A DNA stretch of 64,000 nt from an uncultured Methanosarcinales archaeon. GTDB lineage: Archaea > Nanobdellota > Nanobdellia > Woesearchaeales > JACPBV01. Below, in pieces: positions 24,274 through 57,091 of the stretch (position 1 is the first letter of the stretch; each line of letters opens with the position of its first letter). Both the position numbers and the translations under genes were made by a program. The notes under the pieces are model-generated. The model made no database searches. It was not told the DNA's origin and saw only the letters and a program-made list of their open reading frames with translations. The stretch covers positions 15,866-79,865 of the forward strand of contig CAZTWQ010000004.1 of the NCBI GenBank assembly GCA_964618315.1. Reading direction: 5' to 3'.

Positions 24274-24372
24274 TGGGCCCACGGAGATTCGAACTCCGGA
24301 CCTCACGATCTCTATTGACATTATTTATGTCCATTATCAGTCGTGCGCACCACCAGACTATGCTATGGGCCC
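24274..24372 (-). tRNA. tRNA-Ile (anticodon GAT) with ~25-nt intron at the canonical 37/38 position
   Basis: Acceptor GGGCCCA/TGGGCCC. Anticodon arm CACGA-CTGATA[intron]A-TCGTG. T arm CGGAG-TTCGAAT-CTCCG. Confidence 0.9.
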
Positions 24373-24579: not shown

Positions 24580-24682
24580 CGCCTCCACGCAGACTCGAAC
24601 TGCGGACCTTGCGATCACCACAAACAATTTATAAAAAATCGTTGATAACAGTCGCACGCTCTACCTACTAAGCTATGGAGGC
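24580..24682 (-). tRNA. tRNA-Asn (anticodon GTT) with ~30-nt intron at 37/38
   Basis: Acceptor GCCTCCA/TGGAGGC. Anticodon arm TGCGA-CTGTTA[intron]A-TCGCA. T arm CGCAG-TTCGAGT-CTGCG. Confidence 0.9.
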
Positions 24683-46593: not shown

Positions 46594-47448
46594 TTATTTA
46601 ACAGGGTCAATATGCACAAACGCCCTATCTACTTCTTCCAAATTCTCAACCTTGCTTTGAACATTATCCCCAATATGATGTGCTCTATAGATTGTTAACT
46701 TCCTACTTACTTCTATATGCACTTCTACCTGCAATAAAACACCGACATAATGCGCCCTAACATCATTAAGACCCTTGACATCCTTAACACCTAAGGAAAT
46801 TTTCTTAATCTTCTCCATTAATTCTGGAGAAGGCGCACTACCCATTAAAAACCTAACATTATCAACTCCAACATTATAACCAGAATAGATAATCCATAAA
46901 CCAATAATCAAACCAACTATTGGATCTAAAAATACATACCCTAAATAAGCCCCCCCTAATCCAATCAATACTCCAATAGAGATCAAAACATCATTTCTAT
47001 GGTCAATGGCCGTCGCTAATAAGGCAGGACTATTAATTCCTTTGTTCGCTTTCTTAGTATAGACATATAAGTAAGATTTCAAAATCAAAGTAAATCCCAT
47101 AACCATCATTGGAGCAACACCCTTGATCATCCCCCCGCCAATAATCAACCTATCAACAGCAGCTTTGATAATCTCAAAACCTAAGATACCCATAAGGATA
47201 GCCACAATAAGCCCGGCAATTGGTTCAGCCCTATGGTGTCCAAATGGATGACCTTCATCAGCTCGTTTAGCAGAAACCTTTACACTAATAAACAATATGA
47301 CTGATGTGATTATATCAGTAAGTGAATTTATAGAATCAGAAATAACAGATATGCTGTTATACACAATCCCTACAAAAATCTTCAATATAAACAATACAAT
47401 ATTACCAAATAATCCCCATAGCGTTGCTTTTTTAGCTGTATTATTCAT
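46594..47448 (-). CDS. Cation diffusion facilitator family transporter
   Basis: Six TM helices with SDSINSLTD and HHRAEP-type motifs, plus a C-terminal cytoplasmic domain. Confidence 0.8.
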   Translation of the reverse strand: MNNTAKKATLWGLFGNIVLFILKIFVGIVYNSISVISDSINSLTDIITSVILFISVKVSAKRADEGHPFGHHRAEPIAGLIVAILMGILGFEIIKAAVDRLIIGGGMIKGVAPMMVMGFTLILKSYLYVYTKKANKGINSPALLATAIDHRNDVLISIGVLIGLGGAYLGYVFLDPIVGLIIGLWIIYSGYNVGVDNVRFLMGSAPSPELMEKIKKISLGVKDVKGLNDVRAHYVGVLLQVEVHIEVSRKLTIYRAHHIGDNVQSKVENLEEVDRAFVHIDPVK

Positions 47449-47462
47449 AATCTCATCTCACT

Positions 47463-49430
47463 TCAGTTAAATAATCGTGTTATACCTTTAAAAAATATCG
47501 AAATCCTTTGAAAAAAACCTACATTAATCAATTCAATATCAAATCCCTCACTTACCTCATAAGTTTTATCATTCTTATCTTTATACTTTATTAAGATCAT
47601 AAATTCATTCTCTCCTGCTTTTAGATCATTTCCTTGCATCTTTAAAACAAATTTTCTATCTTCATTCAATTGGCTAACCTCAAACTCTTTGCCTATTGGC
47701 TCAATCTGTATGCCTATATTCTGAGGTGCAAACTTTGATTTCTTATTTAATACAAAAGAGATATCATAATCATCTTTATAACCTATTTCTTCAGGATAAA
47801 CTATGTCACTTATTCCTATGGATGGCTTATCATATACAGTAAGGTCAACAAAAGTAGATTTGCTAACGTCTGGATTAATAGCTTTGATAACTACTTCTTG
47901 CATACCTATCTCAGTAGGACTATAATCAAAGCTTACTGACTCTTTTTGCGTTAAACCTAGATCAATCTTTTCACAATCTCCATCTAGACAGATATTTAGA
48001 TCCTCCAGATAAATATTTCCAATATTGCTAACATCACAATCTATCTTAGCAGTTTCATACTCATAAACTTCAGCTTTCTCAGTACTACAGCTTAATTCAA
48101 TATCCCCTTCATAATTTTGTTCTTCTTCTGTTTCTTCAATCAAGCTTTTTATTCCTTCTAGACTAAACCTCTTTCCATCTCTGATAACATCAAATCTTGC
48201 ATCTGAACTAATATTTCTGACAGAACTAACAACAAGCGGAAAAGTATACACATACCCTTCTTCCAGATCATTACTAACTTTAATTATCCAATTTACTTTC
48301 TTTTCTTCTTTTGGCTTCAGTAATAATGTTTTCCTTTCTTCACCAACAATCTCTACCTCCTTTGACCTGGATAATATCAACTCAGTAGCAATATATGAAT
48401 TCCTTATATTGCTTACAGTTGCTTCAATCAGATTATAACTTCCAAAACCAATATTATTCTTTACAGCTCTTGCACTAATATCTATTGGAGAGCTAATATC
48501 CCCTTTCTTATCTTCAATCACCACATCAATATCTAAAGCATATGTTTCAATATTAATATCCCTGCCCAGCCACTGGAATTTTGTAGAAGCTTCTTTTGCA
48601 TCTACCCCTTCTTTTAATTTTATATGGCCTGCATCAACAAAACCAAATTCACCATAAGTTACATCAAATGCTATCCACCCATAACCTGGAAAATAAACCT
48701 CAGACCAGCCATGCGGCCCAAACCCTTCTTCAAATTGTGCAGCATTGGTATATGAAACTCCAGAGACAAACTTAGCAGGGATGCCAAGTGCTCTGCACAT
48801 AGCTATAAACAGATTAGTCAATTCATCACATACTCCTTGTTTATTCGTCAATACCCATGAAGCAGGTTGGCTTACACTTTCTGTCAATGTACTTAAGTCA
48901 TATTTGATATTCTTTTTTGTCCAATCGGCTAACTTAAAAACTACAACATAAAGATCATCCTCACCTTTAGCCAATTCAGAAGCCAATCTTACAATATCTT
49001 TGTTTGTAGAATCTATAGTTTCAGATGGCTTTGCATATTTTTTTATTTCATCAGGCAAATTGCTCAATGGAAATAAGACTTTGCTTTCAATATCTTTTAT
49101 CCTATTATAATTTCTAAGATTACTTGTTAAGCTATACTCTAATTCTTTCACACTTGGATTATCCCATCTAAAGATAGCAGCATTATCTTCCATACTAGCT
49201 TCTGGACTAGTACTAATCCCTAATATATCTGTTTGAAAATCATCCATAGGAATAAAAGACAAATTTGCAATAACATAATCAGCATCATATTGAGAACCCT
49301 TAGAAACTAAATTTATTTTACTGGATATGTCTAGATTCAACAGTAGATATTCACTGTTAAATATGGAGTTATCAGAAACAACAATAGGTAGTACTAATAA
49401 GAATACTAAAACTATCACACTCTTTTTCAT
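47463..49430 (-). CDS. Secreted transglutaminase-like domain protein with C-terminal beta-sandwich repeats
   Basis: Signal peptide. Core QGVCDELTNLFIAMCRALGIPAKFVSG ... GPHGWSEVYFPGYGWIAFDVT. Confidence 0.75.
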   Translation of the reverse strand: MKKSVIVLVFLLVLPIVVSDNSIFNSEYLLLNLDISSKINLVSKGSQYDADYVIANLSFIPMDDFQTDILGISTSPEASMEDNAAIFRWDNPSVKELEYSLTSNLRNYNRIKDIESKVLFPLSNLPDEIKKYAKPSETIDSTNKDIVRLASELAKGEDDLYVVVFKLADWTKKNIKYDLSTLTESVSQPASWVLTNKQGVCDELTNLFIAMCRALGIPAKFVSGVSYTNAAQFEEGFGPHGWSEVYFPGYGWIAFDVTYGEFGFVDAGHIKLKEGVDAKEASTKFQWLGRDINIETYALDIDVVIEDKKGDISSPIDISARAVKNNIGFGSYNLIEATVSNIRNSYIATELILSRSKEVEIVGEERKTLLLKPKEEKKVNWIIKVSNDLEEGYVYTFPLVVSSVRNISSDARFDVIRDGKRFSLEGIKSLIEETEEEQNYEGDIELSCSTEKAEVYEYETAKIDCDVSNIGNIYLEDLNICLDGDCEKIDLGLTQKESVSFDYSPTEIGMQEVVIKAINPDVSKSTFVDLTVYDKPSIGISDIVYPEEIGYKDDYDISFVLNKKSKFAPQNIGIQIEPIGKEFEVSQLNEDRKFVLKMQGNDLKAGENEFMILIKYKDKNDKTYEVSEGFDIELINVGFFQRISIFFKGITRLFN

Positions 49431-49486
49431 AATTGATTATATTGGTATGATACTTTATAAGTTTTTCCTAATAGATAAATAAAAAA

Positions 49487-49570
49487 CGCCGCCACCGAGA
49501 TTTGAACTCAGAAATCCGTTAGGAAACAGGATTAGCAATCCTGCGCAGTACCAGGTTGTGCCATGGCGGC
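49487..49570 (-). tRNA. tRNA-Ser (anticodon GCT), long variable arm, no intron
   Basis: Acceptor GCCGCCA/TGGCGGC. Anticodon arm CAGGA-TTGCTAA-TCCTG. Variable arm TTTCCTAACGGATTT. T arm CTGAG-TTCAAAT-CTCGG. Confidence 0.88.
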
Positions 49571-49657
49571 ATATGATATGCTAGTATTTTTATGCTGTAT
49601 ATAAAGTTTTTGAAATTAGTTATCTTTATAAAGAATATCCTTTTTCTATTGAGTTAT

Positions 49658-49758
49658 AGCGGGGTAGGGCAGTCAGGAGTGCCCGGGGGGCTCATAACCC
49701 CCAGGTCGGTGGAAGTAGGATGGAAGGCTACTGCCGAGTTCAAATCCACCCTCCGCTA
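49658..49758 (+). tRNA. tRNA-Met (anticodon CAT), initiator-like, with a 26-nt insertion between T-stem and T-loop
   Basis: Acceptor AGCGGGG/CTCCGCT (A1-U72). Anticodon arm GGGGG-CTCATAA-CCCCC. T arm GGTGG[49713-49738]TTCAAAT-CCACC. Confidence 0.75.
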
Positions 49759-50582
49759 TTTTTCCTTCCAATTTTCTTTTATTTTCTTTAAATGTTTAGG
49801 GCTTTCAAAACCCACACTCAATAACCAATTTTTAAGATTATCTTTACCATTCATCTCTATCCTATTGATTATAGTATATCCTTTAGAGTTTCTAATGTCT
49901 TTAACTTTGTAATCATATATCTCTACGATATTAAATTTCATATTTTTGAGGAATGAAGAAATTTGTTGAATTAATTTTTTGCTTTTTGAAGAAACCGTAA
50001 TTACAGGATAATATGGCCTTTCTTTGTACTTTTTCTTAAATGAGATACAACCATCTGTATCAAATATGCCTTTTATTACATACATTAATAATTCTTTATC
50101 GTTTAAGAATATCTCTGGTATTTTTAGTCTTTGGTCTTTTCTACCTTGTTCTAATCCAATTGCTTCTGTGAGGTATCTAAAAATATTCTTAGAATGTACA
50201 GTAAAACCATATGTAGTATTAGTATCTTGAAGTCTAATATTGGGTATAAAACCAAAAGCATGTTGGAATTTAGGCCCTATAATTTGGTGATATAATTCTT
50301 TCTCATCATGGGGATTTCCAACACATTTTATAATATAATCATTTTTATCTATTCTTTTATATATACTACCATCACCTATTATTATTCCACACAAATATGC
50401 AAATTCATTATCTATTGATGAGGGTAATTTTAAACCTTTAACAATATCCTTTTTACTTAATTCTATATTAAATAGTAATTTTTTGTTAGCCATTTTAAAT
50501 CAACTAATCTATGTGTTTAAAATGATTAACTATATAAAATTACCCTTTAGTACATGGTTCAAATCCACCCTCCGCTATTTTT
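49738..50582. mobile_element. LAGLIDADG gene cassette bracketed by 26-bp direct repeats of the tRNA-Met 3' end
   Basis: GTTCAAATCCACCCTCCGCTATTTTT occurs at 49738-49763 and again at 50557-50582, flanking the endonuclease ORF. Confidence 0.55.
49756..50493 (-). CDS. LAGLIDADG-family homing endonuclease (two-motif, monomeric type)
   Basis: Motifs LCGIIIGDGS and IKGIFDTDGC. Its stop codon overlaps the last 3 nt of the tRNA-Met feature (49756-49758). Confidence 0.8.
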   Translation of the reverse strand: MANKKLLFNIELSKKDIVKGLKLPSSIDNEFAYLCGIIIGDGSIYKRIDKNDYIIKCVGNPHDEKELYHQIIGPKFQHAFGFIPNIRLQDTNTTYGFTVHSKNIFRYLTEAIGLEQGRKDQRLKIPEIFLNDKELLMYVIKGIFDTDGCISFKKKYKERPYYPVITVSSKSKKLIQQISSFLKNMKFNIVEIYDYKVKDIRNSKGYTIINRIEMNGKDNLKNWLLSVGFESPKHLKKIKENWKEK

Positions 50583-50640
50583 TTCTTATATTTTTCTAAT
50601 TAAGCCAATTCATCCTATCGTAAAAAATCCTAGAATAATC

Positions 50641-50973: not shown

Positions 50974-51054
50974 ATACTTTATGATTTGAGCGAAGCGAAA
51001 AGCATAAAGTATTGGGTACAATACTTTATGATTTGAACGAAGTGAAAAGCATAA
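50974..51054. repeat. Two tandem 34-nt direct repeats (32/34 identical), each a hairpin
   Basis: ATACTTTATGATTTGAGCGAAGCGAAAAGCATAA at 50974-51007 and ATACTTTATGATTTGAACGAAGTGAAAAGCATAA at 51021-51054. The stem is CTTTATG/CATAAAG. Confidence 0.6.
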
Positions 51055-51144
51055 CGGATTAGAAACTCTATTTCTACTATTTTATCCTTCAATTAATTCA
51101 AAAAACCCAAAAACATTTAAAAACTTAAACTCCAAACTACTATT

Positions 51145-56977: not shown

Positions 56978-57091
56978 TGCGTCGGCCGGGATTCGAACCC
57001 GGATAGCCGGCTTGCTTCTAAAAGCGAAGCTTTTTGAAGAGCTTGCTTCTGAAATGGAAGGCCGAAGTCATAGCCATTAGACCACCAACGC
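56978..57091 (-). tRNA. tRNA-Gly (anticodon TCC) with ~42-nt intron at 37/38
   Basis: Acceptor GCGTTGG/CCGACGC. Anticodon arm TCGGC-CTTCCA[intron]A-GCCGG. T arm CCGGG-TTCGAAT-CCCGG. Confidence 0.85.

Follow-up and report, generated by a model that had tools for sequence, protein, structure and literature searches.

In fungal mitochondria, mobile open reading frames (mORFs) have formed gene hybrids with atp6 of Allomyces macrogynus and with atp6, atp9, cox2, and nad3 of Glomus, and the Allomyces endonuclease has been shown biochemically to mobilize its element (PMC3630166). In such a hybrid the endonuclease open reading frame (ORF), there mostly of the LAGLIDADG type, has entered a gene in its 3′ part and brought along a new copy of the gene's 3′ end; the original 3′ end lies farther downstream as a duplicate that is not expressed, and a close element-free relative shows the empty site. 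Here we describe a locus with these same features on contig CAZTWQ010000004.1 of an uncultured archaeon, within a 64,000-nt stretch of DNA (the window) that is AT-rich (34% G+C) and whose proteins find their closest relatives in Woesearchaeota and other DPANN archaea. The locus is probably an initiator tRNA gene (tRNA-iMet) that was invaded by an 845-bp homing-endonuclease cassette (positions 49713-50557) replacing its 3′ exon. As in the mORF hybrids, a proximal copy of the 3′ end is followed by the endonuclease gene, and a distal copy is followed by flanking sequence collinear with an empty relative, L100. Unlike in the mORF hybrids, the host is an archaeal chromosome and the target a tRNA gene rather than a protein-coding gene, the replacement end would be joined through a host-spliced bulge-helix-bulge (BHB) mini-intron rather than in frame, and the endonuclease gene is antisense, with a probable promoter of its own, and is neither co-transcribed with nor fused to its target. 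A further difference is that the inserted copy does not differ from the native one in the window, the distal copy of the occupied relative L082 having one extra mismatch.

Collaborative, or trans, homing has been described for cyanophage F-CphI with the psbA intron and for T4 mobE with I-TevIII (PMC6083498, PMC2790892). There, as here, the endonuclease gene is free-standing and its neighbor contains an intron without an ORF, and alleles with intron plus endonuclease, with intron only, and with neither all exist. Those systems, however, involve phage protein genes, whose group I introns are self-splicing, and enzymes of other families, whereas at our locus a cut at the intron insertion site is a prediction, and many members of the endonuclease family lie beside uninterrupted T-arms. 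The archaeal rRNA BHB introns encoding I-DmoI and I-Tsp061I, the closest solved relatives, share with our locus an archaeal host, BHB splicing, and a conserved stable-RNA target, but their ORF is intronic and in the sense direction, and splicing removes the complete element; at our locus splicing would remove no more than 26 nt, and the gene is encoded on the opposite strand, outside the tRNA transcript. The mini-intron resembles the non-canonical BHB tRNA introns of Thermoproteales and ARMAN/DPANN archaea in lying outside 37/38, in being short, and in having a relaxed BHB, and we found no protein-coding mobile partner of such introns in the literature searched. Integration of archaeal viruses and plasmids into tRNA genes likewise duplicates the tRNA 3′ part as direct repeats around the insert; our locus differs in having no integrase, an 845-bp insert with an endonuclease gene only, and a left junction that is a spliceable intron. 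The components are known (LAGLIDADG homing endonucleases, relaxed BHB introns, replacement-end cassettes, and collaborative homing). No LAGLIDADG cassette linked to tRNA-iMet is described in the literature searched, nor is the combination of an archaeal chromosome, an initiator tRNA gene, a junction mini-intron, an antisense free-standing gene, and a DPANN-wide tRNA-tied family.

The insertion is defined by L100, which is collinear with the window on both sides through a transglutaminase-like gene, tRNA-Ser, tRNA-iMet, an ORF of 126 aa (ORF126), and RNase HII. Its tRNA-Met(CAT) gene is intact and intronless, with an allele that reads ..AGGTCGGTGGTTCAAATCCACC.., and no LAGLIDADG gene is found in its 11 kb. 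Left of the insertion, window positions 49532-49712 align with L100 5521-5716 and the alignment breaks exactly at 49712; it resumes at 50555, directly after the L100 5′ part, where 50555-50591 aligns with L100 5714-5751. The window is therefore longer by 845 bases (49713-50557), the junctions being ambiguous by 3 nt (TGG), and carries an 845-bp insertion at tRNA 53/54 relative to the empty site. The inserted block consists of the intron first, then the working 3′ exon, and then the endonuclease gene and its promoter, while the distal repeat is the native 3′ end. An earlier sequence-only reading of this DNA had offered, as the first of three interpretations, the insertion of an endonuclease cassette that duplicated its tRNA target, and had suggested comparison with relatives lacking the cassette; the orthologous empty site in L100 essentially bears this out. 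That reading grasped the insertion and the duplication, but missed that the intron forms the left end of the block and that the gene is paired with the tRNA across DPANN.

Two other relatives extend this comparison to a presence/absence polymorphism at one orthologous site, with flanking genes common to all. L082 is occupied like the window, with a cassette of 84% DNA identity at the matching locus and an endonuclease that is 81% identical. L129 is syntenic and has the 53/54 intron but lacks the endonuclease gene, so that its tRNA runs directly into the ORF126 homologue. The L129 intron loop holds TTGGAAGGG, which in endonuclease-bearing relatives pairs with the last codons of the endonuclease. 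Judged from its sequence, L129 is in the state that recombination between the two 3′-end copies would leave.

The duplicated end is an exact 26-nt repeat, as noted when the locus was first read, with positions 49738-49763 recurring at 50557-50582 (26/26 bases). When its 21-nt core was searched with up to three mismatches, only these two copies were found, and 100 shuffles gave an expectation of zero. Against the intronless tRNA the identity runs 2 nt further, TGG at 50555-50557 corresponding to T51-G53. Both the exact repeat and the alignment to L100 identify the distal copy (50555-50582, forward strand) as the native tRNA 3′ end, T51-A73 plus its T run, joined to the native downstream flank. 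Distal copies with one to four mismatches lie beyond the start of the endonuclease gene in L082 (a single mismatch), L006, L007, L008, and L030, while those of L017 and L023 are heavily decayed, leaving traces only. The changes in relatives include some that would break the acceptor stem or the T-loop, such as G70 to A. Distal copies start at G53, corresponding to the intronless form. Their first base precedes the site of the resident T-arm intron by 1-3 nt; this site is 53/54 in the window, L006, L007, and L082, and in L030 the T-arm intron lies at 59/60 and the distal copy begins at A57. Such a placement would indirectly favor a cut at the intron insertion site of intronless alleles. The L008 distal copy includes a whole intronless T-arm whose stem (GAAAG:CTTTC) is unlike that of the working gene, and this difference fits a foreign replacement of the working 3′ end.

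Proteins from loci with a distal copy are spread over three parts of a rough neighbor-joining tree, a scatter that would fit a gene that invaded several times as well as an old duplication that decayed again and again. That the copy in the window is perfect points to gene conversion or to a recent event. We also considered a longer distal remnant reaching the anticodon loop (ACCC, register 38-41); the match was not significant in L006 and L007 and borderline (~0.05) in the window and L082, and we do not rely on it. A second, unrelated LAGLIDADG_2 gene lies in L082 (locus coordinates 993-1628) directly after the distal copy and before the ORF126 homologue, suggesting serial invasion of one spot.

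Over 49658-49758, the unspliced tRNA gene, neither ARAGORN nor Rfam (in gathering and E-value modes) calls a tRNA, and only weak chance matches are returned. Once 49713-49738 is deleted, ARAGORN calls a 75-nt tRNA-Met(CAT), in agreement with the initial observation that the tRNA folds only without this segment. The spliced form has A1:U72 and three G:C pairs closing the anticodon stem, which are of the archaeal initiator type. Its 5′ exon (positions 1-53; 49658-49712, forward strand) rests on the ARAGORN call on the spliced sequence and on collinearity with the intronless L100 orthologue as far as 49712. The proximal 3′ exon (positions 54-73; 49739-49758, forward strand), which is the functional replacement copy, is placed by the spliced-tRNA call, the repeat, and the L100 alignment, and is followed by a T5 run at 49759-49763. 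A TATA-box-like element read from the sequence, TTTATAAA, lies at 49625-49632 on the forward strand, ~33 nt upstream of the tRNA 5′ end; similar elements occur ~30 nt upstream of tRNA-iMet in relatives, and this one is likely the tRNA promoter. tRNA-finding software overlooks such genes, both ARAGORN and Rfam having failed on this initiator tRNA.

The segment at 49713-49738 (forward strand), absent from L100 and forming the left end of the inserted block, is predicted to be a spliced BHB-type intron with a relaxed motif and canonical cut geometry. In its central helix, exon bases 49707-49710 pair with 49733-49736, and in its inner helix 49714-49718 pair with 49728-49732, leaving the bulges GG^A and AG^T. 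In the window taken singly, placement at 52/53 would be equally possible because the last base of the intron is G; introns of relatives end in A, which fixes the position at 53/54, the non-canonical site already proposed. An insertion at the identical position is found in 17 of the 80 loci returned by a gene scan of species-representative genomes, and these 17 together with the window make up the 18 loci that we compared. Exon positions 48-51 pair with intron positions n-5 to n-2 in 18/18 loci, with bulges 52,53^i1 and i(n-1),i(n)^54, and the predicted cuts, 2 nt 3′ of the 4-bp helix on each strand, fall exactly at 53/54 in every locus. Cutting 2 nt 3′ of a 4-bp helix on each strand is the known geometry of the anticodon-intron pair at 37/38. 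The central helix covaries: position 48 is CG in 18 loci, 49 is GC in 14 and AT in 4, and 50 is GC in 16 and TA in 2, while the pair at 51 (TG, TA, or CG) forms in 13/18 and is an A-G mismatch in 5. In all 18 loci the central helix is adjoined by an inner hairpin helix of 4-10 bp, which also covaries and differs in sequence from locus to locus.

The outer helix of a strict hBHBh′ motif cannot form because T47 faces T55, and the motif is therefore of the relaxed type. The fold constrained to the BHB has a free energy of -42.4 kcal/mol, compared with -47.6 for the minimum free energy (MFE) fold, which makes the BHB conformer ~5 kcal/mol less stable. The unconstrained MFE fold retains the T-stem and has no BHB, the motif being seen only through comparison with relatives and the constrained fold. 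The BHB that could not be confirmed at first reading is thus present as a BHB-like motif with covariation, although its strict outer helix is absent. Broad-specificity splicing endonucleases that cut relaxed BHB motifs, including the epsilon2 type, have been described for DPANN (PMC5829648).

A separate feature of the mini-intron is that its hairpin loop, TGGAAGG (49721-49727, forward strand), is complementary to a 3′ trailer, CCTTCCA (49764-49770, forward strand), with a duplex energy of -10.4 kcal/mol. The trailer is the antisense of the endonuclease's last codons, W-K-E, and lies 2-6 nt past the tRNA end across loci. The complementarity covaries in 9-10 of the 18 loci, for example ATGGAGAGG/CCTCTCCAT and ATTGGGAAGG/CCTTCCCAAT, with pairing in the window, L004, L006, L007, L008, L012, L015, L038, and L082. 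As read from these sequences, the pairing would form either a pseudoknot in the pre-tRNA or a hairpin enclosing the stop codon in the endonuclease mRNA. In L129 the loop motif is kept and its pairing partner is gone.

The endonuclease gene (49756-50493, reverse strand) encodes a 245-aa protein of the monomeric two-domain LAGLIDADG type, and the early description of a two-motif gene on the opposite strand overlapping the tRNA end proved correct: Pfam LAGLIDADG_3 matches residues 138-220 (6.9e-11), and tRNA bases 71-73, read as their reverse complement, supply the TAG stop codon. The two motifs, ..LCGIIIGDGS.. (D41) and ..KGIFDTDGC.. (D145/D147), each end in an acidic residue, and G40, D41, G42, D145, T146, D147, and G148 are invariant among 25 homologues. 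A family profile searched against the PDB matched I-DmoI over residues 28-111 (1e-8) and also I-Tsp061I. The AlphaFold2 (AF2) model (pLDDT 92.6, pTM 0.90) repeats its secondary structure in both halves (H29-41, E42-47/E52-59, H61-80, E87-89/E94-100, H102-112; then H133-144 onward), giving the two alpha-beta-beta-alpha-beta-beta-alpha domains of a DNA-binding saddle. Foldseek matched this model to intein endonuclease domains and I-DmoI (probability 1.00; I-DmoI target TM 0.70-0.75). The model and the homologues point to a LAGLIDADG homing endonuclease with an I-DmoI-like fold and with a putative cleavage activity and target. Comparison with the 81%-identical L082 gene gave a dN/dS of 0.15, and the gene is intact and under purifying selection. 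No second copy of the family was found in the window.

The probable promoter of the endonuclease gene (50532-50545, reverse strand) reads GGGTAA and then TTTTATATA and lies ~40 nt before the ATG; GGGTAA plus a TATA element also precede the gene in L082, L006, L007, L008, L017, and L023. Many other family members (L002, L004, L005, L009, L022, L028, L030-L033, L039, L047, and others) have a conserved motif, CACTGGACA, ~12 nt before the TATA box and frequently in two tandem copies, whereas the clade of the window has GGGTAA plus TATA instead. This motif could be an operator or a recognition site. In L014, where tRNA-iMet lies upstream on the same strand, the endonuclease gene is situated between 23-nt exact direct repeats, TCTCAAAGGACACACTGGACAGA (2954-2976 and 3778-3800), that contain CACTGGACA. 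An ENA contig, L081, is 100% identical to window 47000-50413 and then continues, within the endonuclease N-terminal region, as unrelated coding-like sequence; it is either a strain variant or a chimeric assembly.

The endonuclease belongs to a large family, with more than 160 homologues at 47-97% identity and relatives encoded at 336 loci in species-representative genomes. The closest set comprises 47 loci (at least ~37% identity) from Woese-, Pace-, Nano-, Aenigmat-, and Iainarchaeota, and tRNA-iMet adjoins the gene at essentially every one of these that has enough flank. The commonest arrangement is convergent, and since the ORF ends at or inside the tRNA 3′ end, homologues have C-terminal tails such as ..SGERI. 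Elsewhere the tRNA precedes the gene on the same strand (L011, L014, L025), or the gene precedes the tRNA on the same strand (L040, L041). The tRNA-iMet genes beside family members (L001-L047 and L082) contain 0-5 introns at ~15/16, 24-30, 37/38, 43/44, 53/54, and 59/60, positions that are approximate since they come from a home-made spliced alignment. Despite the 84%-identical cassettes, the L082 tRNA has four introns and that of the window one.

More distant paralogues (L048-L080, 28-37% identity) adjoin other tRNA genes, including His(GTG) at L048, L049, L056, L057, and L073, Phe(GAA) at L066 and L068, Arg(GCG), which overlaps the gene end, at L059, L062, L067, and L071, and also Thr, Leu, and others. 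No flanking duplications of tRNA ends were seen at these paralogues at the sensitivity used. In L061 (CP070803.1, a Woesearchaeota chromosome; 3945-4693), ARAGORN reports a tRNA interrupted by 675 nt, with a sense LAGLIDADG ORF filling the insert; the tRNA is labelled Tyr-GTA, its splice sites are doubtful, and no BHB could be placed at ARAGORN's junctions. Viral contigs yielded only distant, generic LAGLIDADG genes, at most ~31% identical over long matches.

Taken together, these observations lead us to favor a selfish cassette that leaves its target usable. From left to right it carries the 26-nt BHB mini-intron, then a replacement for the 3′ exon (54-73) that ends in a T-run terminator, the antisense LAGLIDADG gene, and the probable promoter of that gene, and its arrival would have pushed the native 3′ end downstream to become the second repeat copy. 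The tRNA would be transcribed from its own promoter through the proximal 3′ exon, and the host splicing endonuclease would remove the 26 nt at 53/54 to give a usable tRNA despite the cassette. The endonuclease, for its part, may cut cassette-free, intronless tRNA-iMet genes in or near the T-arm, with repair from the cassette-bearing allele copying the cassette into the cut gene. Because the tRNA sequence cannot be recoded, joining the 5′ exon directly to the new 3′ exon would rebuild the target; the mini-intron would instead part the two exons in DNA, so that the target is not rebuilt, and the splicing enzyme would remove this spacer from the RNA. Collaborative homing works on the same logic, and the cutting and copying would proceed as in the mitochondrial mORFs. 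Loss could follow by recombination between the two 3′-end copies, which would delete the endonuclease gene and leave a solitary 53/54 intron.

Several points weigh against this account. In the window, which of the two copies is foreign cannot be read, because both are identical, and the right-hand homology arm would be only ~26-29 bp unless the downstream flanks match too. The T-arm is intact in the tRNA-iMet beside the endonuclease gene in many relatives (for example, L010, L016, L020, and L023), and in L013 and L046 the adjoining tRNA-iMet has no intron at all; a universal T-arm target shielded by a 53/54 intron therefore fails family-wide, and, on the sequences compared, target and protective role cannot be uniform across the family. 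The two intron-bearing alleles in a pattern-based metagenome sample, L129 and L121, both lack the endonuclease gene. That sample came from a scan of metagenome contigs for the T-arm of this tRNA with 0-30 nt allowed at 53/54, which gave 120 matches, L100 among them. Most were initiator tRNAs of bacteria or of other archaea that share this T-arm; those of DPANN type numbered only about a dozen, which does not allow an unbiased test of whether intron and endonuclease are associated. Groupings of the flanking genes also conflict, with RNase HII joining L082 to L100 and ORF126 joining L082 to the window; their identities thus point both ways on a horizontal or a vertical history. Finally, conservation and purifying selection would also fit a function for the host.

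A more tentative proposal, which we consider possible but rather doubtful, is that such cassettes are a source of non-canonical BHB introns in DPANN tRNA genes. A cassette would enter an intronless tRNA gene at the endonuclease cut site, bringing a target-splitting mini-intron and a replacement exon; later the duplicated exon copies would recombine, the endonuclease gene would be lost, and the short intron would stay, with L129 and L121 representing this post-loss state. If this were true, it would provide a DNA-level mechanism for archaeal tRNA intron gain and connect the fragmentation of tRNA genes directly with selfish endonucleases. Two questions of long standing are how introns arise at odd positions in archaeal tRNA genes and whether disruption of these genes is tied to mobile elements, and the locus offers a testable three-state system (empty, intron plus endonuclease, and intron only) at one orthologous site. 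The favored reading would also extend the replacement-3′-end strategy from mitochondrial protein genes to an archaeal tRNA gene, and would be a way for a selfish gene to occupy an essential single-copy RNA gene without itself being spliced out. Should the enzymes be active, they would form a large and diverse family recognizing highly conserved tRNA-gene sequences, and the new LAGLIDADG specificities that it could supply would be of practical interest.

The alternative that survives best is that the LAGLIDADG protein has been domesticated, as a vertically inherited host gene with a role at tRNA-iMet (a maturase or chaperone for a multi-intron pre-tRNA, or a DNA-binding regulator), the 3′-end duplication being an incidental local rearrangement. 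The breadth and conservation of the family across DPANN and the dN/dS of 0.15 would agree with this, as would the unusual intron richness of the adjoining tRNA-iMet (0-5 introns), the bI3 LAGLIDADG maturase among the Foldseek matches, the annotation of a homologue as WhiA-like by one source, and the conserved CACTGGACA upstream of many family members. Syntenic L100 and L129 lack the gene, however, which is therefore dispensable. Maturases without nuclease activity usually lose their catalytic acidic residues, whereas both are invariant here, and the convergent, tail-to-tail gene pair is not an operon. The three orientations beside tRNA-iMet and the paralogues at other tRNAs likewise point to repeated targeted insertion, and we regard domestication as unlikely.

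Site-specific recombination over the T-loop to 3′-end region could have integrated a small circular element with an attachment (att) site of the tRNA 3′ end, with the 26-nt repeats as attL and attR and the integrase acting in trans or since lost; this is a fuller form of the second interpretation in the sequence-only reading, a remnant of integration at the tRNA 3′ end. The tRNA 3′ part is the usual place and size of tRNA attachment sites, and the direct repeats do correspond to that part, from the T-arm to just past the 3′ end, and do bound the insert. The sole ORF in the 845-bp insert is the LAGLIDADG gene and the neighbors are housekeeping genes; no integrase or recombinase was detected to either side within 8 kb in a Pfam scan of ORFs of at least 110 aa over 42.1-59.5 kb, three of which matched no family. 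The gene has no close relatives on viral contigs, most relatives lie beside a tRNA without a second repeat, and related genes stand beside other tRNAs in several orientations, one of them placed by ARAGORN inside a tRNA intron. Integration would also leave the intron at the left junction unexplained. The flanking repeats of that interpretation stand, and the integration itself appears improbable.

The third interpretation took the distal copy as an alternative 3′ exon, here widened to include the real one, with ~845 nt, including the antisense endonuclease gene, removed as one large intron. The size is correct at the DNA level, the distal copy is a perfect 3′ exon in the window, and a related ORF lies inside the 675-nt tRNA intron that ARAGORN reports in L061. 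Upstream of the distal copy (..GTACATGG|TTC), however, there is no sequence for the 4-bp helix with exon C48-T51 that all 53/54 introns of relatives share: pairing would require RCCG two positions before distal T54, and the four bases there are ACAT. Moreover, a T5 run follows the proximal exon, the proximal copy and mini-intron already yield a complete tRNA, and the mismatches in the distal copies of relatives would break the acceptor stem or T-loop. With no BHB at the distal junction and decayed distal copies in relatives, we reject the large intron as hardly credible. An assembly artefact or chance repeat can be dismissed: the divergence of L081 inside the endonuclease gene does indicate some assembly or population heterogeneity, but no match is expected by chance, an independent JGI metagenome contig, L082, has the identical layout and four other genomes have it in decayed form, and a 26-nt repeat is presumably too short to mislead assemblers across 800 bp.

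Two further features of the window lie apart from the cassette. Two tandem 47-nt units (50974-51067; 83% identical), with internal inverted repeats, lie where the 126-aa ORF starts and in the spacer that precedes RNase HII. Three more tRNA genes contain introns, Ile-GAT (24274-24372), Asn-GTT (24580-24682), and Gly-TCC (56978-57091); their introns are at or near 37/38, and the genes were found by Rfam and missed by plain ARAGORN run without its intron option.

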